DNA of 64,000 bases from an archaeon. GTDB taxonomy: Archaea; Nanobdellota; Nanobdellia; SCGC-AAA011-G17; GW2011-AR17. Both the position numbers and the translations under genes were made by a program. A model generated the notes under the pieces. It ran no database searches. It was not told the DNA's origin and saw nothing but the letters and a program-made list of their open reading frames with translations. This document shows positions 119-43,532 of the stretch, one piece after another. The stretch covers positions 1,237-65,236 of the forward strand of contig JBDRRK010000012.1 of NCBI GenBank assembly GCA_043825775.1. The letters run 5' to 3'. Position 1 is the stretch's first letter. The number at the start of each line of letters is the position of its first letter.

Positions 119-1618
119 ATGCATTGGACTGATTCAATTGTTAAAAAAATTGTAGCTGAGAAAGGAGAGAAAAAGAAATATACTGTTGCGGCAGGGATAA
201 CTCCTTCTGGTGAGGTACATATTGGTAATTTTAGAGAGATTATTACTGTTGATTTGGTTGCAAGGGCATTAGTTAAAGCAGGGAAGAAGATTAGATTTAT
301 TTATTCTTGGGATGATTATGATGTTTTTAGAAAGGTTCCTAAAGGTTTGCCTAAACAGGATATGTTGAATAAGAATTTAAGGAAAGCGATTGTTGATGTT
401 TCTGATCCCTTTGGTAATGAAGAGAGTTATGCAAGACATTTTGAGGTTGAAGTAGAAAATGATGTTGCTAAAGTTGGAATAAAACCTGAATTTTTATATC
501 AAGCAAAGAAATATAGAAATGGGGATTATGCTAAAGGAATAAAAACTGCTTTAGATAATTCTTCTGTTATTAGAGATATTTTAAATAAGTATAGACAAGA
601 GCCCTTGAAAGAAAGTTGGTTGCCATTAACTGGTTTTTGTCCTAAATGTGGAAAGGATGAAATAGAATTTTCTGATTATAATAAAGGAAAAGTAAAATTT
701 TCTTGTAAGACTTGTAATAAAGTTGAAGAGATTAGTATTAATGAAAAATTTTTGAAATTACCTTGGAGAATTGATTGGCCGATGAGATGGAGTTATGAAA
801 AAGTTGATTTTGAACCTGGTGGTAAGGACCATTCAACTGAGGGAGGATCATTTAGTACTGGAAAAGAGATTGTAAAAGTTTATGATTGGACTGCTCCTAC
901 TTATTTGATGTATAACTTTATTTCAATTAAAGGTGCAGGTGGTAAGATATCTAGTTCTTTAGGAAATGTTATTACTCTTGGAGATTGTTTGGAAGTTTAT
1001 GAGCCTGAGATTGTAAGATGGTTGTTTGCAGGAACAAGACCTGGAGCTGAGTTTGCAATTTCTTTTGATGTTGATGTTTTAAGAATTTATGAAGACTTTG
1101 ATAGATGTGAAAGAATTTATTTTGGTAAACAAGATGCTAAAAATGATAAGGATTTAGAAAATCAGAAAGCAATTTATGAACTATCTGTTGTTGATAAAGT
1201 TCCTTCTAAGATGCCTTTGCAACCATCATTTAGACATTTGGCTACTTTGGTACAATTGTATGAAGGTGATTTAGATAAAGTTGAGAAGGAAGTTGGCAAG
1301 GGTAGAAGGATTAGAGCTGAATGTGCAATGAATTGGATTGAAAAGTATGCTCCTGAAGAGATGAAATTTAAGCTAGTTGATAAAATAAAAAGTAAAGATA
1401 TTAAACTAATTAAAGAAGTTGTTAGTAAAATGGATGGAAAGATTACTGATAAAGAATTACATGAAGAGATTTATAAAATTTGTAATGAGAATAATTATGA
1501 GCCTGCTGATTTCTTTAAACTGTTTTACAAAGCATTAATCAATAAAGAGAAAGGTCCTAAATTAGCTAGTTTCTTGTTGACTATTGGTAGAGTTAGACTC
1601 GACAAGCTCTTGAGTTGA
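119..1618 (+). CDS. lysS: Lysine--tRNA ligase, class I (archaeal type)
   Basis: 499 aa; HIGH-type motif 'HIGNFREI' near the N-terminus and KMSKS-like 'GKISSSLGN'. Length and architecture fit class I LysRS. Confidence 0.8.
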   Translation: MHWTDSIVKKIVAEKGEKKKYTVAAGITPSGEVHIGNFREIITVDLVARALVKAGKKIRFIYSWDDYDVFRKVPKGLPKQDMLNKNLRKAIVDVSDPFGNEESYARHFEVEVENDVAKVGIKPEFLYQAKKYRNGDYAKGIKTALDNSSVIRDILNKYRQEPLKESWLPLTGFCPKCGKDEIEFSDYNKGKVKFSCKTCNKVEEISINEKFLKLPWRIDWPMRWSYEKVDFEPGGKDHSTEGGSFSTGKEIVKVYDWTAPTYLMYNFISIKGAGGKISSSLGNVITLGDCLEVYEPEIVRWLFAGTRPGAEFAISFDVDVLRIYEDFDRCERIYFGKQDAKNDKDLENQKAIYELSVVDKVPSKMPLQPSFRHLATLVQLYEGDLDKVEKEVGKGRRIRAECAMNWIEKYAPEEMKFKLVDKIKSKDIKLIKEVVSKMDGKITDKELHEEIYKICNENNYEPADFFKLFYKALINKEKGPKLASFLLTIGRVRLDKLLS

Positions 1619-1843: not shown

Positions 1844-3465
1844 ATGATTATATTAACTTCTTCTGTATATAAGTTTTTTCTTTCTAAAGCTGCTTTTATT
1901 AGGTTGTAGAACATTGGATGTGGTGCATCTAATTTTGATGTTAGTTCTGGGTGAAATTGTCCTGCCATGAAATAAGGATGATCTTTTAGTTCTATTATTT
2001 GCATTATATTATCATTGTCTTCTGAAATTCCTGAAAATATCATGCCATGTTCTTCTAATAGCTTAATATGTTCTGGATTTACTTCATATCTATGTCTAAA
2101 TCTTTGTCTTGTTTTTTCACCAAACATTTCGTATGCTTTTGTGTTTTGTTTTATTATCACATCATGTGCACCCAAACGCATTGTTCCACCTTTGTCTGTT
2201 ACATTTTGTTGTGATGGAAGAATACAAATAACCTTATGGGGGGATTGTGGATCTGTTTCTGTTGTGTTTGCGTTTGCAAGATTACAAATATGTCTTGAAT
2301 ATTCAATTACTGCCATTTGCAATCCATAACAAATGCCTAAGAAAGGAATGTTGTTTTCTCTTACAAATTTTACTGCTGCTATTTTACCTTCAACTCCTCT
2401 TGAGCCAAAGCCTCCAGGTACAATAACTCCGTGAACATCTTTTAGAATTTCTGAATAATTAGCATTTTCACTTGTTTCAATCCATTTTAATTTTATTTTG
2501 CATTGAAGATTTGCTTCACAATGTTTTAGTGCTTCTAGAATAGATGCATAAGAATCTTCTAGTGCTGTGTACTTTCCACAGATTGCAATTGTTACTTCTT
2601 GATTTGGATTTGATAGGTTTGCAATTAATTTTTTCCATTTTAATAATTCAGGAGGAGAGTAAAGGTTTAGTTTTTTGTGTAATATTTCTACTAGACCTTC
2701 TTTTTCAAATACAAATGGAATTTTATATATATTATCTACATCCAAACCAGTTATTACTGCTTCTTCGTCAATATTACAGAATTGTGCTATTTTTTTCTTG
2801 ATTTTATCTTCAAGATATTGTGAACATCTTCCTATAATGACATCAGGCTGAATACCTTTATGTCTTAGTAGATTTACTGATTGTTGAGTTGGTTTTGATT
2901 TTTGTTCATTAACTCCAGATGGGATTGGAACATAGGTTAGATGCACATATAGAATATTATTTTTTCCAACTCTATTTCTTAATTCTCTGCATGCTTCAAT
3001 GTATAATTCATTTTCAATGTCTCCAACTGTACCCCCAATTTCTATTAGAACTAGATCTGCTTGTTCTTTTACTCCAACTTCAATAACCCATTCTTGAATT
3101 GAATTTGTTACATGTGGAATGAATTGAACAGTTTTTCCAAGATAATCCCCTCTTCTTTCTTTGTTTCTTATTCTTTCAAAGACCTTTCCCATTGTTAGAT
3201 TCCACTCTGATTTACAAGTTATGTTTAGGAATCTTTCATAATGCCCGAAGTCCATATCTACTTCTCCTCCATCATCCAATACAAAGACTTCTCCATGTTC
3301 AATTGGATTCATTGTTCCTGGATCTACGTTTAAGTATCCGTCCATTTTTATTGGGACAATTTTCATTCTAGAAGAGAGCAATTTGCCTATAGAAGCTGCT
3401 GCGATGCCTTTTCCAAGGCCAGAAAGAACACCTCCAGTGACTACAATATACTTTCTCTCTTGCAT
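1840..3465 (-). CDS. pyrG: CTP synthase
   Basis: 541 aa; N-terminal 'YIVVTGGVLSGLGKG' P-loop of the CTP synthase amidoligase domain plus a C-terminal glutamine amidotransferase domain ('GICYGLQ'). Confidence 0.95.
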   Translation of the reverse strand: MQERKYIVVTGGVLSGLGKGIAAASIGKLLSSRMKIVPIKMDGYLNVDPGTMNPIEHGEVFVLDDGGEVDMDFGHYERFLNITCKSEWNLTMGKVFERIRNKERRGDYLGKTVQFIPHVTNSIQEWVIEVGVKEQADLVLIEIGGTVGDIENELYIEACRELRNRVGKNNILYVHLTYVPIPSGVNEQKSKPTQQSVNLLRHKGIQPDVIIGRCSQYLEDKIKKKIAQFCNIDEEAVITGLDVDNIYKIPFVFEKEGLVEILHKKLNLYSPPELLKWKKLIANLSNPNQEVTIAICGKYTALEDSYASILEALKHCEANLQCKIKLKWIETSENANYSEILKDVHGVIVPGGFGSRGVEGKIAAVKFVRENNIPFLGICYGLQMAVIEYSRHICNLANANTTETDPQSPHKVICILPSQQNVTDKGGTMRLGAHDVIIKQNTKAYEMFGEKTRQRFRHRYEVNPEHIKLLEEHGMIFSGISEDNDNIMQIIELKDHPYFMAGQFHPELTSKLDAPHPMFYNLIKAALERKNLYTEEVNIII

Positions 3466-9296: not shown

Positions 9297-9625
9297 AAGT
9301 TAAATTTCCATTTGATACAAAAGAATTATTTGATAATTGTGTAAAGAATGATCGTTTACCTAGGAATGATTTTAAGAAACAAGCTGTTTTGTTGAAGATT
9401 TTAGAGGATTTTAAAGATAAAAAATATAAAGAAATTGAAGTTAATGAAATTATTAAAAAATATTTTTCTGATTTTGCTACAATTAGAAGAGAATTAGTAA
9501 ATTATGGTTATTTTCATAAAGATTCTTATAAAAGTGAATATTGGGTTGTAAAAAGAGAGTTGACTATGAAAGATATTGAGAATAATACAATATTGAAAAA
9601 ACATGCTGAGGATTATTTGAAATGA
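9293..9625 (+). CDS. Hypothetical protein (operon member)
   Basis: 110-aa ORF whose start and stop overlap the flanking genes. Confidence 0.4.
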   Translation: MKVKFPFDTKELFDNCVKNDRLPRNDFKKQAVLLKILEDFKDKKYKEIEVNEIIKKYFSDFATIRRELVNYGYFHKDSYKSEYWVVKRELTMKDIENNTILKKHAEDYLK

Positions 9626-34424: not shown

Positions 34425-35784
34425 ATTAACCTATGATGAATTAGTATTTCCAAATTATGTAAATAGTAATACTGCAGTTCGATTGAGAGCTAATATTGAT
34501 GGAAGATTACAAACATTAGAGTTAAGTGTTTGTGATATGGCTTATGCAATTGAACTTGCTGGTTTGAATAGTTTATGGTTATCTGATACTGGAAGAGGTA
34601 AAACTCAGTTAATGTCTGATATTGCTTGGCATCATTTTGGTGGTGACCAAGAAGAAGGTGATGCTAACTGGGCTGATGGAAGACCAAGTTTTGATATTAC
34701 TGATTTGTTTGAAAGAACTCAAGTTGATTTAGAATCAGGAAAGTTTGATAGTGATACTGCTCGTCAAGTTAAGGCAAACAGAATTAGAAGAATGTTTTTT
34801 GGAGTTGATGAAATTAATCGTGCTCCTAATCCAAGACAGAACGAATTTTTTGATTTAGCTGATGGTAAATATACTTTTAATGGGAGGAGACTGGATTTAG
34901 GTAAAGAAGGTTATGCTATTTTTATGGCTACTGCCAACTTAAACAAAATGAATGGTGATTTCTCTGGAACTTTTGAATTAGATAGAGCTCTTTTGAACAG
35001 AGCCCATGTAACTATAGATTTAGATCATCCTGATTTCAGACCTACTGTTGAGGATGAAATGCTTATTGAAGAGGGGAAAGCTAATCCAAAAGTAGATATT
35101 GCTCCTGCTCAAAATTTAAGTGGTAAAATCTTAACAGCAAATAAAGAAATAATGGCTACAGCTAGACAACTGAATCCTTATTTTACTGCTTTTAGATTTT
35201 TGATAGGAAGAGGATTAGATTATTGTGCTACAGATAAATATGATGAAAAAGGATCAAATTTTCCAATGCTCTGTGCTGAATGTGATGACACAGGTAAAGA
35301 TCTTTGTTCTAGGGTTAAAGGTTCTTCAGAAAGAACCTTACCTGCAGTAAAGAGTTTAGCTTATGCTTTGTCATATATTGCAAAATTGAAAACTGGAAAA
35401 GAAGTTGAAATTGATCCATTAGATGCTACTTTGCAGGCATTTAGATTTACTACATATCATGGTAATTTAAATGAGCTTATGGCTGAAGACCAATATGCAA
35501 TGAGAAAACAGATTATGATGGATGAAACAGTTGAAAAGTTATCTGGTGTTGTTGATGTTTTACGTCCTTATTTGCCAATTATGATAGATGGTGGGGAACC
35601 AGTTATTGTTAGTTACCAATTTAAAGGTGAACAATTTGATGGTCCAAAAACAGATAAAACAATTAGTACATTAAGAAAAGCAGGGATTTCATATCAGGAA
35701 AAGGGACTCAAAGCTGAATTAAAAGAACAAGGTCTTGGTACTGACTGGATTGACCCTTATGTTAAATCTATGAGGAAAAAATGA
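34417..35784 (+). CDS. MoxR-family AAA+ ATPase
   Basis: Walker A-like 'SDTGRGKTQL'; Walker B 'FFGVDEINRAPNPRQNEFFDLADG'; sensor-1 region 'FMATANLNKMNGDFSGTFELDRALLNRA'; these match MoxR 'DEINRAxPKTQSALLE…ATQNP…GTYPLPEAQLDRF'. Confidence 0.75.
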   Translation: MSELTYDELVFPNYVNSNTAVRLRANIDGRLQTLELSVCDMAYAIELAGLNSLWLSDTGRGKTQLMSDIAWHHFGGDQEEGDANWADGRPSFDITDLFERTQVDLESGKFDSDTARQVKANRIRRMFFGVDEINRAPNPRQNEFFDLADGKYTFNGRRLDLGKEGYAIFMATANLNKMNGDFSGTFELDRALLNRAHVTIDLDHPDFRPTVEDEMLIEEGKANPKVDIAPAQNLSGKILTANKEIMATARQLNPYFTAFRFLIGRGLDYCATDKYDEKGSNFPMLCAECDDTGKDLCSRVKGSSERTLPAVKSLAYALSYIAKLKTGKEVEIDPLDATLQAFRFTTYHGNLNELMAEDQYAMRKQIMMDETVEKLSGVVDVLRPYLPIMIDGGEPVIVSYQFKGEQFDGPKTDKTISTLRKAGISYQEKGLKAELKEQGLGTDWIDPYVKSMRKK

Positions 35785-36551
35785 CTAACACACTAAAACC
35801 ACTGAACTTAGGAAGAAGAATACTAACAGAAGAGGAAGTTTTAGAGCAGTTAGCGGGTTATCAACCAACTAATCCTAGACAAGAACTTGAACCAACTCCT
35901 CAACCACAACCAACACCGGAGCCAGAACAAGAAGCAGATATAATTCCTCAAGACTATATACTATTAGAAGGAACAAATAACTATCAAGATACATTTATTT
36001 CAACTACAAGAACACACCAAGGAAATAATTGGAATAAAACCCAAGAGCTTTTACATGCACGAGATCTCTATATGCCTACTATTAAGCAATTTGTTGATTT
36101 TCTTAAATTACTGAGAAGTGGAACAGCTTTTAATGGAAATGGAGATAACATTCCATCTTCACAACTGGATGCAATATACAAGGACATAACTGAAGTGAAA
36201 GACCCATGGAGAGCAGAATGGTTGGATGCTAAATTTGAAGGTAACCTTATTCATTATCATCATAGAACCAGGCAGGGAAGTTTACAATCTGTAGTTTCAG
36301 AAGGACTAGTTCCATATTTAAGACAGGACAAGACCCCCGGTATTGATTTAGAATACTGGATAAACAATTCCACTTCACAAGGTTTACCTTTGGATAATAC
36401 TCTAAATGGGAATTTATATTATTGGCATCCAAGAGATGGTGCTGTCGCGAGGTTCAGTGCGAATTCGGATAGGGCTTACCTTATTTGTAGCAGGTACCCT
36501 TGGAGCTCGAATTCCTCTCTCGGGGTACGTCCTTGCGCGCGAAAAAATTAA
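35781..36551 (+). CDS. DGR target protein 1 (C-terminal variable C-type-lectin/FGE-like fold ending '…SLGVRPCARKN')
   Basis: The 3' end contains VR1, which is homologous to the TR with adenine-specific mismatches; paralog of 38375-39166; start overlaps the MoxR stop. Confidence 0.8.
   Translation: MTNTLKPLNLGRRILTEEEVLEQLAGYQPTNPRQELEPTPQPQPTPEPEQEADIIPQDYILLEGTNNYQDTFISTTRTHQGNNWNKTQELLHARDLYMPTIKQFVDFLKLLRSGTAFNGNGDNIPSSQLDAIYKDITEVKDPWRAEWLDAKFEGNLIHYHHRTRQGSLQSVVSEGLVPYLRQDKTPGIDLEYWINNSTSQGLPLDNTLNGNLYYWHPRDGAVARFSANSDRAYLICSRYPWSSNSSLGVRPCARKN
36442..36522 (+). repeat. DGR variable repeat VR1
   Basis: 81 nt aligned to the TR (39419-39519); 8 mismatches, all at TR adenines. Confidence 0.8.
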
Positions 36552-36569
36552 CGATCAATACAAGAAAAA

Positions 36570-38378
36570 ATGGATACAAACCAAGTAACAGAAGAAATCA
36601 AGGCAAGAGAAACTGCAAGATTTAACTATAAAGGAAAGGTTTTAGTTAGAGAGTTATCTAGAGAACCTTGTTTTTCTGGCAGTATTGATATGCTTACTAC
36701 TGCAAAAATAGAGGTTGGTTATAATCCAGATTATCCAGAAGAAGCTCAACATTTAGAAGGAATTGTTACTGAACCTTTTGAAAGAGCAATGACTTCAGTT
36801 TTAAGACATGAGCTTAATCATAAAGGTGGAGGAGAATTTCAAGGATGCCCTAGAAATATTGATTTACATGCTGAAAATGTTCTTGAACCTGCAGCAGAAG
36901 TATTACAAAGTTTAGGTTTACCAAATGTCCCTGTTACTGAAAATCAAACTCTTTATGCTTACATGGCTAACTTAATAGAAGATGTTTTTGACAATGCAGA
37001 ATTAGGCAATAATTCTGACCATGTTGGTATGTTTCTAGCTTACAAAGATGATGCTCAACATCTACCTGATGATATGGAAGGGAAACTCTCACCTCTATTT
37101 GATGCTTTTGTTCAATTGCAACAAAAATTATATGGTGGGAGAGCAAGCAGAAAATTATTAGCTGAACATTATTCTGATGATAATAGAGTTCAAACTGCAA
37201 TTGATAATTTTATGCAAAGGTCTGGTTTGACTGATATGACGAGAGAAGTCACAACTAGAAGAAGAAAAGAGAGAGTTGAAATATTTGATAGAAAAGAAGC
37301 AGTTCAATATTTGATGGATGAAAACAATTGGCCAGAATTGTCAAAAATCTTAACAGAAGAATTTGCTGAATTGATTGATAAAAATAAATTACAACAACCA
37401 GATTATGTTAAAGGAACTTTCATACCTCTAAAAGGTGAGGCTGATGGATTTTCTGATGAAATGGATGATAAAGAGACTAAAATGAGATTAGTTTGGAAAA
37501 AATATGTTGAAGGAAAGGGAAAAGAATCAAGTCCTGCTTTCCAACCTCCTGCTTATTTAGAAAGTTTTGAAGCTTTGGATTTAGTCTATCAAAGATTAGC
37601 AAGAAATTTAGAAATCAAAACAAAAGCTTCCACAAGAACTGCAAGTATGCCTGTAATGCACTATGGAAAGAGAAAGTTTGACCCAAGAAGAGATAAATTA
37701 TCAAAAGCCAGAATTGGTTTTGGCAGAAAAGGAAAATTAGAGTTAAGTGTAGGAAGATTTCATGAGGATTATCCAGTTGAATATACTGAAAGAATGAGAA
37801 GTCTGCCAGAAATAAAGTTTGTTATGATGGATACCTCTGGAAGTATGTCTCATCCTGTAGAAGGAAGTGATACTGGTAAAGTCATGAATCCTTGGGCAGA
37901 TGAAAGAAGACAATGGGGAGATAATAGCAGATATCATCATGCGTTAGTTGCTTGGTATGGTTTGTTAGGATTATTAAGAAAACAAGGAACATTAAAACAT
38001 AAATCAGTCAAATTAGCTAATTATTCAAGTTCTACTCAAACAGCTTCTGATTTAAGAGATGCTAAAAAATTGGCTTTAACACCTCAGTTCGGAGGTACAG
38101 AGTTAGATTTAGACACTATTGATGATATGTTTGGAAGAGACCAGTTGATATTCTCTTTATCAGATGGAGATGTTGATAACTGGAATCGAATTAAAGATGA
38201 ATATATCCAAAGAGCCAAACAAAATCATTATTTTCATTTGCAAATTGGTGGAGAAACAGCAATGTCACGAGATTTAGAATCTGCAGGTTTGGTAGTTAAA
38301 TATGATGATGGTAAGAATTTAGGTAAAATGGTTATTGATTTAACAAGACCATATATTACTAGGATGGAGAAAAAATGA
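36570..38378 (+). CDS. VWA-domain protein with MIDAS motif (MoxR partner)
   Basis: C-terminal half: 'KFVMMDTSGSMS' (DxSxS MIDAS) and downstream 'IFSLSDGDVDNW'; follows the MoxR gene pattern. Confidence 0.75.
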   Translation: MDTNQVTEEIKARETARFNYKGKVLVRELSREPCFSGSIDMLTTAKIEVGYNPDYPEEAQHLEGIVTEPFERAMTSVLRHELNHKGGGEFQGCPRNIDLHAENVLEPAAEVLQSLGLPNVPVTENQTLYAYMANLIEDVFDNAELGNNSDHVGMFLAYKDDAQHLPDDMEGKLSPLFDAFVQLQQKLYGGRASRKLLAEHYSDDNRVQTAIDNFMQRSGLTDMTREVTTRRRKERVEIFDRKEAVQYLMDENNWPELSKILTEEFAELIDKNKLQQPDYVKGTFIPLKGEADGFSDEMDDKETKMRLVWKKYVEGKGKESSPAFQPPAYLESFEALDLVYQRLARNLEIKTKASTRTASMPVMHYGKRKFDPRRDKLSKARIGFGRKGKLELSVGRFHEDYPVEYTERMRSLPEIKFVMMDTSGSMSHPVEGSDTGKVMNPWADERRQWGDNSRYHHALVAWYGLLGLLRKQGTLKHKSVKLANYSSSTQTASDLRDAKKLALTPQFGGTELDLDTIDDMFGRDQLIFSLSDGDVDNWNRIKDEYIQRAKQNHYFHLQIGGETAMSRDLESAGLVVKYDDGKNLGKMVIDLTRPYITRMEKK

Positions 38379-39166
38379 CTAACACACTAAAACCCCTGAA
38401 CTTAGGAAGAAGAATACTAACAGAAGAGGAAGTTTTAGAGCAGTTAGCAGGTTATCAACCAACTAATCCTAGACAAGAACCTGAACCAACACCTCAACCA
38501 CAACCAACACGGGAACCAGAACAAGAAGCAGATATAATTCCTCAAGATTATATTCTATTAGAATCTACTGGTAATTATCCAGATACTCACATTTCAACTA
38601 CAAGGATACACCAAGGAAATAATTGGTTTCAAGCACATGAAGAGCTACACAAAGAAGGATTGTATATGCCTACATTAAGACAGTTTGTAGATTTCTTAAA
38701 GTTATTAAAAGGAGGAAAGGCATTTAATGGCCAAGGAAATAAAATTCCAAAAAACCAATTGGAACAAATACTGAAAGAAATAATTGAAGTAAGAGCTCCT
38801 GGTAGAGCAGAGTGGCTTGATGCTGATTTTAAGGTAAAGAGTGATATTTTACATATAAATTACAATCATAGAACTGTTGGTGGACAATTACAACCAAATC
38901 AGTCAGAAGTTTTACAACCTTATTTGGATCAAAATAAAACTCCGGGAATTGGTTTAGAGTATTGGTTAAACAATGCAACATCAAGACATGGTCTGCCACC
39001 AGCAAATACTTCAGATGGAAGTTTATATTACTGGGCTCCAATGTCTGACAATAATTCTGTCGCGAGGTTCGATGCGTATTCGGGTAGGGCTAGCCTTAGT
39101 TGTGACGGGAACCCTAGGGACTCGAATTCCTCTCTCGGGGTACGTCCTTGCGCGCGAAAAAATTAA
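38375..39166 (+). CDS. DGR target protein 2 (paralog of target 1)
   Basis: Same N-terminal 60 aa and same C-terminal '…SNSSLGVRPCARKN' as target 1; contains VR2; start overlaps the VWA stop. Confidence 0.8.
   Translation: MTNTLKPLNLGRRILTEEEVLEQLAGYQPTNPRQEPEPTPQPQPTREPEQEADIIPQDYILLESTGNYPDTHISTTRIHQGNNWFQAHEELHKEGLYMPTLRQFVDFLKLLKGGKAFNGQGNKIPKNQLEQILKEIIEVRAPGRAEWLDADFKVKSDILHINYNHRTVGGQLQPNQSEVLQPYLDQNKTPGIGLEYWLNNATSRHGLPPANTSDGSLYYWAPMSDNNSVARFDAYSGRASLSCDGNPRDSNSSLGVRPCARKN
39057..39138 (+). repeat. DGR variable repeat VR2
   Basis: Aligned to the TR; 9 mismatches, all at TR adenines. Confidence 0.8.
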
Positions 39167-39418
39167 CTATCAATACAAGACATAAAAATATAAAAACTAT
39201 GATTTTCTTAATTCCTTGTCTTAGAGACATTATCTTGAGTATTTCCACATCCTAAGGAAATGCAATGAAGGATAATCGCAAGGGCTACATGTAGATTCAT
39301 TAGTGCATTTTCAAAATGTCATAAAATTCAATAATGATAGATAGTAATAATGACAAACCTTGGGAAAGTTTAGAGTGAAACCTAAAATTATGGTGCTTTT
39401 ACAATGAGTTTGCTAAAT

Positions 39419-39519
39419 CTGTCGCGAGGTTCAATGCGAATTCGGATAGGGCTAACCTTAATTGTAACAGGAACCCTAGGAACTCGAAATCTTTTTTAAG
39501 ACGAGATTTCCTCTCTCGG
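39419..39519 (+). repeat. DGR template repeat (TR) with embedded hairpin (39486-39510), immediately upstream of the RT
   Basis: A-rich copy 'ctgtcgcgaggttcaatgcgaattcggatagggctaaccttaattgtaacaggaaccctaggaactcgaaat…cctctctcgg'. It translates to N-A-N-S-D-R-A-N-L-N-C-N-R-N-P-R-N-S (AAC/AAT codons). It lies in non-coding DNA 24 nt upstream of the RT start. Confidence 0.8.
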
Positions 39520-39542
39520 AATAACCTTTGTTATCTAAGACA

Positions 39543-40669
39543 ATGAAAACTTGCAAAAACTTATATTCAAAACTATATTCAATAGACAACCTAAAATTAG
39601 CATTCACAAAAGCTAGAAAAGGAAAAACACTTAGACTAGAGGTAATCAAATTTGAAAAGAATCTTAATAGGGAATTACCTCAACTAAAGAATGAATTAAA
39701 GTTTTTAACTTATAAACCTAAACCTCTAGTAAACTTTATTATTAGGGATCCTAAAATCAGAAAAATAAGCAAATCTCATTTTAGAGATAGAGTTGTCCAT
39801 CATGCACTTTGCAACCTAATAACTCCCATCTTTGAAAAAACATTTATCTTGGATTCTTATGCAAATCAAATAGATAAAGGAACATTAGCTGCTATTCAAA
39901 GATTTGATTATTTCAAGAGAAAAGTAACCAAAAACAATACAAAAAATGCTTATGTTTTCAAGGCAGACATAAGAAAATATTTTGAATCGATAAATCATGA
40001 GATTCTAACAAACACTATAAAAAAGAAAATAAAAGATAGAAGAATAATCTGGTTAATACAAATCATCCTCAACAATTCAACTGGGGGGGGGGCGAACAGA
40101 AAAAGGGCAACATAAATCAAAGATTTCTTTCCTCATATATTCAGAAGGGAATGCCTTTGGGAAACTTAACATCCCAATTCTTTGCAAACCTTTATCTCAA
40201 TGAATTGGATTATTTTGTAAAACGCAAACTAAAAATAAAATATTACATTCGTTATGTTGATGATTTCATAATCTTTCACAATTCAAAAGAAAAACTTGAA
40301 TTTTACAAGGAAGAGATAGGTTCTTTTCTAACGAGTAAATTAGATATAGAATTACATCCAGATAAATCAAGAATATTTCCTATTCACCGAGGAACAAACT
40401 TTCTTGGATTTAAAATATTCCCTTATCATAGGATTATAAAAAACCAAAATCTAAGGAGATTTAAAGGTAAATTAAAACAACTTGAAAAACAATACAGACA
40501 AGGGGGTATAAGTTATGATGAACTATATGATTCCTTGGAAGGCTGGCTTGCTTATGCTAAAAATGCTAATACTTACAAATTGAGAAAGGAGATTTTAGAA
40601 CAAGTAGAAACTCTGTTTTCGAAAGAGGTTTCAAGTAAAGAGATAAATAGATATCAAAAATATAACTAA
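39543..40669 (+). CDS. Diversity-generating retroelement reverse transcriptase (frameshifted in a G10 tract; two ORF fragments 39528-40115 and 40151-40669)
   Basis: RT motif 2 'FKADIRKYFESINHE'; DGR-specific motif 4 'GMPLGNLTSQFFANLYLNELD' (SQ replacing QG); motif 5 'YVDDFIIF'. A homopolymer at 40083-40092 interrupts the frame; an 11-G version reads through. Confidence 0.85.
40083..40092 (+). repeat. G10 homopolymer causing the RT frameshift
   Basis: 'aactggggggggggcgaac'; frame 1 stops 20 nt downstream; the +2 frame is open across the tract and into ORF2. Confidence 0.7.
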
Positions 40670-41064
40670 ACCCGGCCCAAATACCCTAATCTAATTAAAT
40701 CAGAAACACTTGTATTCATCTTCTCAGAAGCTGTTTTGAGCTTTATATACTCATTTTTAGAAATTTTAATAGAAAGAACCCTTGTTTTAGTAAAATATCT
40801 CTTTGAATTGATTATCTCCATTCCTGCCTCTCTTTTAATCTTTGAACCCTTCTATCAGTATTTTCAATTATCAAATCAATCTCTTTCCACATCTCTTTTC
40901 TTAATTTCAATAGTTCCTTTTGAAATTCTTCTTCCATAATACAATAATGGATTTCAATCCTTAAAAAAGATAGAGTGGAAAAAAATATAGCAAAAAATAT
41001 AGCAAAAAAATGTACAAAAAAATTCACTCGTCAATTTAAATACCCTCATTCCGCTAAGTAGATA

Positions 41065-42384
41065 ATGGCTAAAAATAATGATTCTTTGGATGTTACTGCA
41101 GTTATAATAATTCTTGTTGGGATAATAAGTGTTTGTTATATTTGGTGGGAAAGGAATGGACAAGAAATAGAAGCGTCATTTCTCGCAATTCCATGGGTAA
41201 AGATAGGCATAATTATCTTACTTACTCTTATTTCAATATTTATTGTCTATAAAACAATAAAGTACATAGAAAAGAGAAAAAAAGAAAAACAAAGAACAGA
41301 AGAAAGAATAGAAAACGAAAAAAATACCCTTCTTTCCCTACTAAATACAGATTTTCAAGGAAATTCTAGAGAAATAGAAGAACAATACAAAAAAATAAAT
41401 AAAAGAATCAAAGAAATAAATAAAAACATTAGAAATCAATACCAAAAAGAGATAAAATCATTACATAAGAAAACAAAGAATTTAATCCAAACTATAGAAC
41501 AACAAGAATATATAAGATATGAAAGACAATTAGAACAAGAAAGAGAAGAAGAACTAAAAAGAAAAAGACATAAAAATAAAGTAAAAGAATTATTTGAATA
41601 CAAGAAAAAATTAAATTCAATAAGGGCACTACCCTTAAACAAAAAATACTCTTCTGATGTTATTAATGAAGCTACAAAATTAATGAAATACTATGAACAT
41701 AAACAAGGACAACTAAATGAAACAAGAGAAAATGCAATAGAATATTACAAAACACATCCATTGGACACACAACCAGAGATTAGGGAAAATGAAGAAAAAT
41801 TATACAAAGAAGTAAGAGACCAAATAAAACAAGGGAAAATAGAACTAAAGAAAAAACCAAAAATAGAATATCAAGGTAAAAAACTGGAAAAGGATTTTTA
41901 CCTGTCAAAGGATTTAAATGAAGAGACAAAAGCAAAAGCTAGAGCTCAGGGATTTGTACAAGTTGATGGAATAAAACTTGATGGAAAGATACAGGGTGGT
42001 GGTTATTATATAAGAAAGGAAAATCCAAGAGAGAGTAAAAAACACTTCTACTTAAAACACTTATTTGCTAAACTACATGAAAATACACAATTAGAATATC
42101 AGGTTAAAGGCAAAAGGGTAGATGTAGTATTATTGATAGAAGATTACAAGTTAGGGATAGAAATAGAAACTGGAGCCAATAGAGAAAAACAATTAATGGA
42201 GAAGATTTCTTGGTTAAACAAGAATTTTGATCAATGGATTTTTGTCTGTCCAAAAGAGTTGCATGGGAAATATAATAAATTAGTAAATCCTAAGAAAAGC
42301 TTTTGTTTGGGGATTAAGGAAGCAAAGGAATTCATCTTGGAGTTGACTTTACCTGTTGAAGATCTGCAAAGAACAGGTAAATAG
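41065..42384 (+). CDS. Membrane-anchored coiled-coil protein with C-terminal PD-(D/E)xK-like module (hypothetical)
   Basis: 2 N-terminal TM helices, long K/E-rich coiled coil, C-terminal 'GKRVDVVLLIEDYKLGIEIETG'. Confidence 0.4.
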   Translation: MAKNNDSLDVTAVIIILVGIISVCYIWWERNGQEIEASFLAIPWVKIGIIILLTLISIFIVYKTIKYIEKRKKEKQRTEERIENEKNTLLSLLNTDFQGNSREIEEQYKKINKRIKEINKNIRNQYQKEIKSLHKKTKNLIQTIEQQEYIRYERQLEQEREEELKRKRHKNKVKELFEYKKKLNSIRALPLNKKYSSDVINEATKLMKYYEHKQGQLNETRENAIEYYKTHPLDTQPEIRENEEKLYKEVRDQIKQGKIELKKKPKIEYQGKKLEKDFYLSKDLNEETKAKARAQGFVQVDGIKLDGKIQGGGYYIRKENPRESKKHFYLKHLFAKLHENTQLEYQVKGKRVDVVLLIEDYKLGIEIETGANREKQLMEKISWLNKNFDQWIFVCPKELHGKYNKLVNPKKSFCLGIKEAKEFILELTLPVEDLQRTGK

Positions 42385-42479: not shown

Positions 42480-43532
42480 TTAGTATTTATCCAGAATCTT
42501 ATTAAGGAATTTTATAAATTCTTTAGTATCTAAAAAGTAATTAGGATAAGCTTTCTTCAAATCAGCAGTAGTATCAGCACCAACAAGAACAACATCATAT
42601 TCTTTTTTACCATAAATTCTTTTTTCAGCTTTAGCATAATCGTCAAGTGCTTTCTCTTCTTGTCTTTTTGAATAAGAAGTAATGACTAACTTTTCTTGAA
42701 TTGTATCTAATTCAAGTAAGAAAAAATGTACATTTTTTTTACTCTTTAAATCATCAAAAAACTTAATTGATTTAGCCCAACCTACCATCTTAGTTCTAAC
42801 ATTTAATTTTTTTTCTTTTTCCTTGATCAATAAATAAAGTTCTTTTTCATTTGAGGGAGTATTAGGAACTTGAGGACAATTTTCTAATCTTGCAAATGCT
42901 GAACTAACCAATTTAAAGAATTCTTTCCATTCTTCTTCTCCTTCATTTGATTTAATCGCTTGACCAGTAAAAAAATCAACTGTTTCAACTGCTGTAGCCC
43001 AAATATGTTGTAATCTAGATCTAATTTGTACTTCAATTAATAATCCATTATAGATTTTTCTTTTTTCTTTATCACTATTGTATCTATAAATTAAATGTAT
43101 GCTTCTATACCCATCTTCCTTTGGATAGGTAATATAATCCTTTTCATTTACTTTTTTATGTTTTAAGGTTCCATTTGAATAGTAGTCTTGATAGAGCTTC
43201 TTTGCCAATTCAACATCTGTCATAACAGCCCTACATCCTGCAATATCTTGCATTTGAGTTAATTTCATTGTAGCTTTTTTTCCATCATATTTCCTATGCA
43301 ATTTTTTTAAGATAGAAGATACTCTCTTTAGTCTCTGTGCAGATAATGAACTTGGATCTATCTTTTCAGAAGATCTCTTTAACCTTTGCTTAAAAACATG
43401 CATAGGGTAGCTATGGGCCGCTCTCCAATTACTTAAAACCCCTAAAGCTTTGGAACTTTCCTTTTTTGTTAAAATAACTCCTGCAGCATCAGTTTCAGAT
43501 TTGGAGTATTTTTTAGGGTTTATTTGTTTCAT
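42480..43532 (-). CDS. RelA/SpoT-homolog (RSH) synthetase-domain protein with C-terminal extension (toxSAS/CapRel-like)
   Basis: Synthetase motifs 'QRLKRVSSILKKL' (Syn1), 'DIAGCRAVM' (Syn2), 'GYRSIHLIY' (Syn3), 'EVQIRSRLQHIWATAVE' (Syn4), followed by about 140 aa of non-RSH sequence. Confidence 0.7.
   Translation of the reverse strand: MKQINPKKYSKSETDAAGVILTKKESSKALGVLSNWRAAHSYPMHVFKQRLKRSSEKIDPSSLSAQRLKRVSSILKKLHRKYDGKKATMKLTQMQDIAGCRAVMTDVELAKKLYQDYYSNGTLKHKKVNEKDYITYPKEDGYRSIHLIYRYNSDKEKRKIYNGLLIEVQIRSRLQHIWATAVETVDFFTGQAIKSNEGEEEWKEFFKLVSSAFARLENCPQVPNTPSNEKELYLLIKEKEKKLNVRTKMVGWAKSIKFFDDLKSKKNVHFFLLELDTIQEKLVITSYSKRQEEKALDDYAKAEKRIYGKKEYDVVLVGADTTADLKKAYPNYFLDTKEFIKFLNKILDKY

Follow-up and report, generated by a model that had tools for sequence, protein, structure and literature searches.

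Is the run of ten G residues that splits the RT gene of an archaeal DGR a genetic switch, or is it an error in the sequence? The first-pass annotation of the DNA analysed here (the window, a 64-kb stretch of archaeal sequence with 31% GC) had placed a G10 within a DGR RT gene, and had read it either as a phase-variable on/off control or as a homopolymer sequencing error. We confirmed the tract and the split in the window sequence; the features of the locus are collected in Table 1.

Table 1. Features of the DGR locus and its RT gene (window coordinates)
Feature	Position	Strand	Remarks
G10 homopolymer, frame-shifting simple-sequence repeat	40083..40092	+	homologous G8-G12 tracts in at least 120 relatives
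RT N-terminal ORF (190 aa, motifs 1-3)	ATG 39543..40115	+	crosses the tract; TAA 40113-40115
RT C-half ORF (motif 4 GMPLGNLTSQ, YVDD, thumb)	open 40040..40669	+	first start ATG 40151 = Met204
Predicted disordered loop between RT motifs 3 and 4	40083..40150	+	includes a 42-nt (14-codon) insert that the commonest relatives lack
CGAAC, 3' flank of the tract	40093..40097	+	conserved in relatives
Template repeat (TR)	39419..39491	+	17/17 TR/VR core mismatches at TR adenines
Variable repeat 1 (VR1)	36442..36514	+	3' end of target gene 35781-36551; 8 A-to-N differences from TR
Variable repeat 2 (VR2)	39057..39129	+	3' end of target gene 38375-39166; 9 A-to-N differences from TR
RT-16 RNA motif (Rfam RF03019)	39233..39421	+	87.7 bits (gathering score 50); directly abuts TR

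Firstly, the element is a genuine DGR. TR and VRs differ only at TR adenines, and both VRs lie within the last ~110 nt of their ORFs. VR1 and VR2 do differ from each other, as had been claimed, at 14 positions, every one of them a TR adenine. The RT has a motif 4 of the xGNLTSQ type, YxDD and a DGR RT fold. Once the frame is repaired, Pfam RVT_1 spans residues 71-292 (E=2e-23), and the best structural match in the PDB is the Bordetella DGR RT of phage BPP-1 (bRT-Avd-TR RNA; 8UBD/8UB7), with a TM of 0.72-0.83 and 28% identity. The BPP-1 system shares with the window the GNLTSQ motif 4 and YVDD, the restriction of VR/TR differences to TR adenines and the location of VRs at the 3' ends of target genes. 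Unlike BPP-1, the window DGR has two target genes and no recognised Avd, its TR immediately precedes the RT and is itself preceded by the RT-16 RNA motif, and Met replaces Leu/Ile in motif 4. Its RT ORF, which would be uninterrupted in a canonical DGR, is split at G10; no such control has been described for BPP-1. No accessory (Avd- or HRDC-type) Pfam match was found among the neighbour genes scanned, and the accessory-protein requirement may not apply to this archaeal clade. The products of the two target genes contain no domain recognised by Pfam or NCBIfam.

Secondly, the tract stands out in its own DNA and sits where a change of length matters. It is the longest homopolymer of the window and its sole G or C run of 8 or more, which bears out the rarity noted earlier; the second-longest G run has 7 residues, and the longest T and A runs are 9 and 8. 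Dinucleotide-preserving shuffles of the window give 0.03 G10 runs expected by chance, and few Gly codons are GGG (9.8% in window ORFs). As in contingency loci, the repeat is over-represented with respect to both composition and codon usage, specifically at this locus, and it lies between two frames, where the gain or loss of a unit changes the frame that is read. The N-terminal frame ends 20 nt past the tract, as previously stated, and the +2 frame is indeed open across the tract, with motif 4 and YVDD. Adding one G (G11) restores a single ORF of 375 aa, and removing two (G8) one of 374 aa. In the NCBI annotation, the locus is recorded as two CDS, MFH1972466 and MFH1972467.

Thirdly, repeats occupy the same place in many relatives. 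We scanned metagenomes at the DNA level, independently of frame, for G8 or longer followed after a variable gap by codons for MPLGNLT. At least 120 contigs match this pattern (107 clusters at 90% nucleotide identity among the matches listed), and in all matches listed the G8-G12 tract lies in the same RT loop, between motifs 3 and 4. The suggested check for poly-G at the homologous RT position thus came out positive, in all three frame phases. Among the matches listed, no stop interrupts the N frame before the tract in 105/107 loci, and none interrupts the C frame from the tract onward in 107/107. Dereplication of these listed matches left 94 alleles, of which 24 are in frame, 41 need -1 and 29 need +1, a distribution not different from uniform (p=0.09-0.13) and with no enrichment of in-frame alleles (26%). 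In-frame and out-of-frame natural alleles (24 and 70 among the matches listed) therefore coexist in genes that are otherwise intact, and about three quarters of the tract-bearing relatives listed have the same split RT. The absence of in-frame enrichment speaks against a switch to the extent that it would be equally expected if tract length were irrelevant to expression. Outside the loop tracts, 699 kb of listed contigs hold one lone G or C run of 8 or more, and this is a second RT-type tract. In the protein database, 72 of ~119 N-half proteins terminate just past GG(G) in the loop and carry recognisable out-of-frame motif-4 tails. A scan of GTDB genomes covered the 80 best-scoring loci, that is, the intact ones, and is uninformative for out-of-frame counts; G8 or longer occurs in 10 of these 80, always inside or beside the RT. 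The scan brought up in-frame G9 tracts and poly-G at other RT positions. Poly-G tracts are also present in the 5'-UTR of the RT gene in L032 and L036. The motif-4 pattern gave a single match in IMG/VR, so the RT clade appears to be cellular. The repeat is not always poly-G: dinucleotide repeats split the frame at the same loop in L204 ((GA)11), L205 and L206 ((TC)10) and L207 ((AG)8), these splits being reproduced in NCBI and Logan assemblies, and (AC)n in P0251 likewise splits the frame at this loop.

The coding capacity on either side of the tract is preserved whatever the phase. Among the matches listed, the C-ORF reaches at least 140 aa in 23/24 in-frame loci and in 33/37 and 26/28 loci of the two out-of-frame phases; YxDD is kept in 22/24, 34/37 and 26/28, respectively. 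Identity to the window RT is equal across the three phase classes, and 59/65 out-of-frame relatives have no further stop or frameshift (matches listed). Both RT halves are under purifying selection: between the window and its closest relative L208, whose interrupted 10-nt tract (GGGAGGGGGG) is also out of frame, dN/dS amounts to 0.107 in the N-half and to 0.062 in the C-half. Extra inactivating lesions, named beforehand as the mark of a plain pseudogene, were found in neither half of the window RT. This leaves a frameshift-inactivated RT in a fossil DGR untenable, despite the split ORF with its two annotated CDS and the lack of an Avd-like gene recognised by Pfam among the neighbours scanned: the downstream dN/dS of 0.06 shows no relaxation of selection, dozens of divergent lineages carry the same split with intact halves, and the tract is kept pure in spite of its mutational instability and against codon usage.

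Some relatives differ by their tract only. L209 and L210 carry GAGGGGG where L211, L212 and L213 carry G11; the tract is the sole difference and each allele is found in 2-3 assemblies. The flanks of L209 and of L211/L212 are identical over 1740/1740 and 956/956 positions, that is, 2,696 bases. A second pair, L214 (G8) and L215 (G7), has flanks of 99% identity. Otherwise identical alleles with different tract lengths, a hallmark of contingency loci, thus exist in the relatives, while the window lineage is represented by one run. Tract length was the same in 9/11 near-identical pairs from independent assemblies (matches listed), which indicates that switching is not extremely fast. The pairs L134/L186 and L185/L171 were set aside as ON/OFF pairs, their overall identity being just 65-81%, and protein-guided pairs were used instead. 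The out-of-frame L208 and L209 have interrupted, less mutable tracts, and their halves are still intact, which weighs against a switch.

Since repeats lie at the same spot in more than 100 relatives, mostly out of frame in genes otherwise intact, a heritable and reversible hypermutation switch is the most likely explanation. We put at roughly 0.6 the probability that G10 is a slipped-strand contingency tract, real, selected and hypermutable, that would make DGR activity phase-variable. Between the two original readings, the switch is favoured by the family-wide tracts in one loop, the tract-only differences between alleles and the alternative repeat types. Slipped-strand mispairing during DNA replication would change the tract by one G per step. 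G11 or G8 would join motifs 1-3 to motifs 4-7 and yield an active RT; G10 or G9 would keep them apart, with loss of RT activity. The window allele would then be in the OFF phase, one insertion step short of ON. Mutagenic retrohoming from TR into the VR1 and VR2 target genes would be turned on and off stochastically and heritably, presumably in a reversible manner within a lineage, which could keep a useful receptor variant and later restart diversification.

Such a switch would resemble the poly-G/C contingency loci of Campylobacter jejuni, Neisseria, Haemophilus and Helicobacter. These also have intragenic G8-G12 tracts in AT-rich genomes, with length changes that shift the frame, ON and OFF alleles that coexist while the rest of the gene is intact, alleles told apart by nothing but the tract, and repeats that run against codon usage. 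It differs from them by its archaeal host, by a gene encoding a targeted-hypermutation enzyme and not a surface structure or restriction-modification enzyme, by a tract located mid-gene in a disordered loop instead of near the 5' end, and by the conserved 3' flank CGAAC. In phasevarions, repeat tracts lie in mod methyltransferase genes and a frameshift toggles an enzyme that affects many phenotypes. Like these and like phase-variable mutator states, the candidate switch would control a regulator or diversifier through a repeat-driven frameshift; unlike them, its effect would be the hypermutation of two specific genes, neither epigenetic nor genome-wide. Hypermutable poly-G tracts are cited for Campylobacter phages in a 2025 review (Sorensen et al. 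2021, cited in PMC11868660). Searchable literature, DGR surveys included, yielded no report of DGR RT genes with repeats, frameshifts or phase variation.

The surroundings of the tract bear on the alternatives. AlphaFold gives a pLDDT below 50 for residues 181-200, a prediction of disorder, and the RT loop would tolerate changes of length. The long insert in this loop is common to P0009 and the window; in the commonest relatives, such as L199, 16 nt separate the tract from the ATG. Among the matches listed, this distance ranges from 7 to 58 nt and is typically 15-16 nt, and N-frame stops are spread 0-123 nt past the tract without any coupling pattern. The five positions of CGAAC are conserved at 93% (C), 88% (G), 84% (A), 69% (A) and 57% (C) in 116 unique relatives (matches listed). 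This conservation is at the nucleotide level whatever the codon phase, and simple slippage does not require it, a point against the switch reading. We considered whether the tract mimics an SD and rejected this as the cause of the flank conservation: poly-G followed by CGAAC matches the anti-SD at the 16S 3' end (GGAUCACCUCCU) only in part, the best-conserved position of the flank, the C at +1, is a mismatch, and the ATG lies too far away, at 15-16 nt and in some cases 58, and at too inconstant a spacing. No enrichment of GTTCG or of a pyrimidine-tract complement was found within 150 nt of the tract in 99 relatives (matches listed), and folding of 40040-40200 revealed no frameshift-stimulating RNA structure (z=0.20).

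Could the frame be restored during expression, and not in the DNA? RNA polymerase or the ribosome might slip on the G run, so that some full-length RT would be made from out-of-frame alleles; the length of the tract would in that case act as an attenuator of RT dosage instead of an on/off control, which is compatible with variation at the DNA level. This would account for phases indistinguishable from random, for out-of-frame genes as intact as in-frame ones (both among the matches listed) and for strong purifying selection on both halves even between two out-of-frame alleles, and, judging from the sequence, tRNA-Gly would re-pair perfectly in any frame on a G run. Slippage or frameshifting is known from dnaX, IS elements, the endosymbiont poly-A rescue and the -1 frameshift of Sulfolobus fucA, and as in these systems a homopolymer here parts two frames of one protein with both halves conserved. 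Those systems have one fixed frame relationship, mostly A/T runs and defined stimulators, slippage in general being documented mainly for A/T runs. In contrast, the window family has no fixed frame relationship: both -1 and +1 would be needed and the three phases are near-uniform (matches listed). Neither the stimulatory structure nor a conserved complementary motif was seen near the tract, and the partial anti-SD match with its conserved mismatch provides no stimulatory element at a conserved spacing. Moreover, (GA)n, (TC)n and (AC)n, which are not known as ribosomal or transcriptional slippage substrates, occupy the same loop, and the 5'-UTR tracts of L032 and L036 cannot act by bypassing a frameshift. 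We regard slippage at expression as rather unlikely.

A further unlikely reading, put forward tentatively, is that G(n)CGAAC is a portable, sequence-specific regulatory cassette whose tract length is actively set or decoded and which would tune RT dosage and the timing of hypermutation instead of just toggling them. The agent could be a dedicated factor, programmed slippage of polymerase or ribosome, or machinery of the retroelement itself. The phase-independent conservation of the flank, the presence of G11+CGAAC in a different RT loop of L018 and the alternation with (GA)n, (TC)n and (AC)n point in this direction. If true, it would be a second-order control of evolvability specific to DPANN DGRs.

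The split RT might also work in two pieces, the N-half ending past the tract, the C-half starting at the ATG of Met204, and the two coming together over the disordered loop to form an enzyme with full or partial activity. Met204 is exactly where the open C frame has its first start codon, and this Met is characteristic of the loop-repeat clade (M in 112/115 close homologs; L or I in 42/49 distant ones). Since a clade-specific ATG opens the C-half ORF, the out-of-frame split state may not be null. The split falls within a loop of pLDDT below 50, the C-half is strongly constrained (dN/dS 0.062), and split genes are well known in Nanoarchaeota. However, Met204 is equally invariant in ~85% of close homologs without the repeat, the distance from tract to ATG varies, and the N-frame stops are scattered with no sign of coupling (matches listed). 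The partial fit of poly-G and CGAAC to the anti-SD, with its mismatch at the 93%-conserved C, also counts against this reading, and a fully functional split would leave nothing to maintain a pure and costly repeat. Two functional pieces are therefore improbable.

We would be still more surprised if G10 were a consensus error in the window, with a true tract of G11 (or G8) and an intact RT. Long G runs are error-prone and assemblies do break at them: 9/120 loci start 0-8 nt from the tract (matches listed), and L031 has a scaffold gap adjoining its G9. A separate Logan assembly, from run SRR26275510, shows no difference over 4.5 kb and likewise has G10; because both assemblies of the window lineage come from this run, the sole one to cover it, an error in the reads would be shared by both. 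The Logan contig stops at 39138. Against a miscount, G10 was obtained by two assemblers, and 72 of the 107 window homopolymers of at least 6-7 nt sit inside long intact ORFs. ORF pairs near other A/T runs were examined as possible signs of general assembly indel noise and proved to be distinct genes (nucleotidyltransferase and HD; response regulator and FKBP). In the family, both out-of-frame phases are common (matches listed), which excludes a systematic under- or over-count, the 9/11 near-identical pairs agree in tract length, and dinucleotide repeats, which Illumina reads well, split the frame too. The homopolymer-error reading is thus weakened as a general explanation, and what stands of it is a miscount at the window tract itself, at low probability.

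The favoured reading, a contingency tract within the RT gene, has consequences for the family. Annotation pipelines that require an uninterrupted RT ORF overlook about three quarters of tract-bearing DGRs (matches listed) or call them pseudogenes; with split annotations and assemblies that break at the tracts, the prevalence and activity of DGRs in DPANN are likely mis-estimated. Archaeal phase variation was named as future work in a 2025 review (PMC11868660). If true, the switch would be a widespread instance of repeat-driven phase variation in Archaea, a domain in which such variation has hardly been described. It would operate in DPANN cells, which depend on hosts of their own and are believed to rely on DGR targets for their surface interactions. 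A reversible, heritable switch of the RT would, if true, directly answer the question of what restrains a DGR from overwriting a useful variant.

The reverse transcriptase (RT) gene of the diversity-generating retroelement (DGR) is split by a G10 homopolymer, whose position and length are as claimed in the first-pass annotation, the factual points of which all held up. It is the longest homopolymer of the window (64 kb, 31.5% GC), where the runner-up runs are G 7, T 9 and A 8. Such a tract had been called very unusual at this GC content, and indeed only 0.03 runs of this type are expected by chance in the shuffled window sequence, and just 9.8% of the Gly codons of the window ORFs are GGG. We confirmed that the N-half (motifs 1-3) stops 20 nt past the tract and that the +2 frame, with motif 4 and YVDD, is open across it. 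One added G gives a single RT of 375 aa and two removed Gs give one of 374 aa, in line with the ~375 aa predicted for G11 or G8; RVT_1 covers residues 71-292 of this repaired RT, which is aligned over 97-100% by thousands of single-ORF homologs. Its predicted model (pLDDT 77.9) has a fold like that of the Bordetella DGR RT, the best structural match (TM 0.72-0.83).

Except for the RT split, the DGR appears complete. The mismatches between the template repeat (TR) and the variable repeats (VRs) all lie at TR adenines (17/17), and the two VRs, already said to differ, do so at 14 positions, every one a TR adenine. The RT-16 RNA motif is a candidate for the structured 5' portion of this archaeal clade's DGR RNA. 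In comparison with both VRs, the TR has ~18 extra nt (ATCTTTTTTAAGACGAGAT) inserted near its 3' end, with TTTCCTCTCTCGG coming next (39490-39520); the 3' flank of the VRs, TTCCTCTCTCGGGGTACGTCCTTGCGCGCGAAAAAATTAAC, is identical in both (36513-36555 and 39128-39170) and may be an IMH-like element. The contig of the independent Logan assembly, SRR26275510_191260 (L001/L002), ends at window position 39138, just 3' of VR2, a break that could be due to VR diversity in the population or to VR1/VR2/TR repeats confusing the assembly graph. The window is archaeal: it also holds archaeal LSU and SSU rRNA and archaeal RNase P, and it is of DPANN type, judging by the names borne by the RT relatives (Woesearchaeota, Nanoarchaeota, Pacearchaeota and Aenigmatarchaeota).

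Features of the window and repeats in RT genes of relatives (L, fetched DNA loci; P, homologous protein)
Locus	Feature	Position	Strand	Remarks
Window	VR1	about 36442-36514	+	3' end of target gene
Window	602-aa ORF	36570-38378		between the two target genes; without family match; DTSGS motif by eye
Window	VR2	about 39057-39129	+	3' end of second target gene, paralogous to first
Window	RT-16 RNA motif (Rfam, 87.7 bits)	39233-39421	+	between second target gene and TR; 3' end abuts TR
Window	TR	about 39419-39491	+	abutted by RT-16 RNA motif
Window	RT N-half ORF	ATG 39543 to TAA 40113-40115	+	reads through tract
Window	RT C-half, +2 frame	open from 40040, ends 40669	+	GMPLGNLTSQ (ATG at 40151), YVDD
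Window	G10 homopolymer	40083-40092	+	splits RT frame
Window	51-aa ORF	40666-40821	-	weak NikA-like (ribbon-helix-helix) match
Window	439-aa ORF	41065-42384		lysine-rich, membrane-anchored
Window	RelA/SpoT-domain protein gene	42480-43532	-	
L204	(GA)11	749-770		same RT loop; halves out of frame
L205 / L206	(TC)10	1165-1184 / 964-983		same RT loop; halves out of frame
L207	(AG)8	2042-2057		same RT loop; halves out of frame; 58-kb contig among ribosomal protein genes
P0251	THTHTHTHT = (AC)n			same loop; protein only; matching out-of-frame motif-4 tail
L018	G11			loop between motifs 2a and 3 of RT; CGAAC at 2922-2926
L032 / L036	G8 or longer	2483-2491 / 2479-2488		8-9 nt upstream of RT start codon
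L054	G8 or longer	2480-2489		codons 10-12 of RT
L059 / L068	G8 or longer	3246-3254 / 3204-3212		after YVDD
L025	poly-G	2144-2153		about 350 nt upstream of RT

The homolog alignment places the tract in a loop of variable length between WLIxxILxN and KGMPLGN, a loop that is disordered in the repaired RT model (residues 181-200, pLDDT <50). Several homologs have GG, GGG or GGGG in the same loop, and the 14-residue loop insert of the window RT is also present in the homologous protein P0009. We scanned metagenomes with a frame-unconstrained pattern (G8 or longer, a variable gap, exact MPLGNLT codons), and the poly-G counts refer only to contigs with at least G8 and this exact motif-4 pattern. Poly-G in homologous RTs, which the first-pass annotation had put forward as a point to check, proved common: at least 120 contigs have G8-G12 in the same loop. 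Clustering of those listed at 90% nucleotide identity leaves 107 clusters; the contigs stem from many projects, their median GC is 32% and G10 is their modal tract length. Among these matches, the N-terminal frame is open to the tract in 105/107 loci with enough sequence, and the C-terminal one is open beyond it in 107/107, which locates the frame change at the tract; for every locus, tblastn frames were verified by open-frame tests, not by eye. Dereplicated alleles among the matches listed comprise 24 in frame, 41 that need -1 and 29 that need +1, the type of the window allele, a distribution indistinguishable from uniform (p=0.09-0.13). The three classes of listed matches do not differ in their identity to the window RT. 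A C-ORF reaching 140 aa or more is present in 23/24 loci in frame, 33/37 needing -1 and 26/28 needing +1, and YxDD in 22/24, 34/37 and 26/28, respectively; the out-of-frame genes are not decaying. Besides the RT-loop tracts, 699 kb of listed contigs contain one G/C run of 8 or more, a second RT-type tract.

The protein database gives a similar picture: 72 of ~119 N-half matches break off shortly past a GG(G) in the loop and have tails recognisable as out-of-frame motif 4; many of these matches lie on contigs of 15-63 kb. Among 50%-identity clusters from an exhaustive search, 20 of the 112 loop-reaching representatives end within 50 residues of the loop, as do 11 of the 25 closest, and a repeat-type loop is seen in only ~10% of the best 120 full-length homologs. 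By rough extrapolation from these counts, between a quarter and a third of the RT clade would carry a repeat, ~three quarters of those out of frame.

Dinucleotide repeats occupy the same loop in other relatives (see table), those of L205 and L206 coming from an NCBI assembly and an independent Logan assembly. Poly-G tracts also occur at other positions among the best 80 GTDB loci, with 9-10 G in L032, L036, L054, L059, L068 and L025. This convergence of repeat types and positions on one gene is a signature of selection for its mutability; a need for glycine, or for one particular nucleic-acid site, does not fit such variety. The five bases 3' of the tract (CGAAC, window 40093-40097) are conserved in the listed set of metagenome contigs L083-L202 (C 93%, G 88%, A 84%, A 69%, C 57%) across all three codon phases, although they specify the residues RT, E or AN depending on the in-frame allele, and they also follow the G11 tract in the different RT loop of L018. 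We found no complementary partner for CGAAC within 150 nt in 99 relatives, and no convincing anti-SD match for tract plus CGAAC against the 16S 3' end.

We paired alleles by selecting shortened proteins with identical N-halves and differing tails, and fetched their DNA. In one groundwater lineage, the tract is the sole difference (GAGGGGG in two assemblies, G11 in three), the flanks being identical at 1740/1740 positions upstream and 956/956 downstream; in a second lineage, the alleles have G8 and G7 between flanks that are 99% identical. Among the matches listed, 9 near-identical contig pairs from different assemblies have the same tract length and 2 do not. Assembled tract lengths are therefore reproducible, yet the tract changes faster than its flanks. 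Some 'independent' assemblies may have reads in common. Nine of the 120 listed loci start 0-8 nt from the tract, eight of them at true contig ends; in L031, from a GTDB Nanoarchaeota MAG (about 1203-1300), a scaffold gap of 10 N and a duplicate of the loop come after G9, the assembly having evidently failed at the tract. The metagenome contigs L149 and L184, with G10 and G11, are identical at 493/493 positions downstream of the tract and only 65% identical upstream, a mosaic that either arose when RT lineages recombined at the tract or is a chimera created there during assembly. Two RT copies with differing tract states lie on one contig in L123 (6026-6072 and 10716-10759; GGGGAGGGGGGGG in frame, G11 out of frame) and in L142 (2334-2376 and about 9482-9490).

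The best-supported reading is that the tract is a contingency tract. Read-through, whereby transcriptional or ribosomal slippage yields a full RT despite an out-of-frame tract, remains a rival and would account for the random-looking phase; it is at odds with the presence of both out-of-frame phases, with the dinucleotide repeats in the same loop and with the 5'-UTR tracts, and no stimulator was found. A functional two-piece RT, its halves made separately, also remains: Met204 (40151-40153, in GMPLGN), the first start codon of the C-half ORF, is clade-specific, with M in 112/115 close homologs and L or I in 42/49 distant DGR RTs. However, Met204 is fixed just as much in relatives without the repeat, and the halves show no coupling pattern. 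A miscount of G10 in this one assembly, the sequencing error envisaged earlier, likewise remains, against the facts that two assemblers give G10 and that homopolymer frameshifts are absent in the rest of the window. The closest relative, L208, shares the context of the window RT and is 78% identical to it in the N-half; its tract, 10 nt long with a single A (GGGAGGGGGG), has the same out-of-frame phase. Comparison of the two gives a dN/dS of 0.107 (N-half) and 0.062 (C-half), values that are approximate because dS is saturated; the direction is clear, and it indicates translation and constraint of the RT portion beyond the frameshift. That the gene is a plain pseudogene can effectively be ruled out.

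Both slipped-strand phase variation and DGRs are familiar on their own. The full-text literature and accessible DGR surveys searched mention neither repeats nor frameshifts in the RT genes of DGRs, and a repeat switch on the RT of a DGR, widespread in DPANN archaea, appears not to have been described before; a 2025 review (PMC11868660) names phase variation in archaea among the tasks for the future. As a contingency tract, the repeat would change in length by replication slippage and toggle the RT between a fused and a split state, the latter presumably devoid of RT activity; the window allele would be one +1 step away from the fused, ON state. Such toggling would switch mutagenic retrohoming into both targets on and off, heritably and presumably reversibly, and may allow good variants to be locked in.
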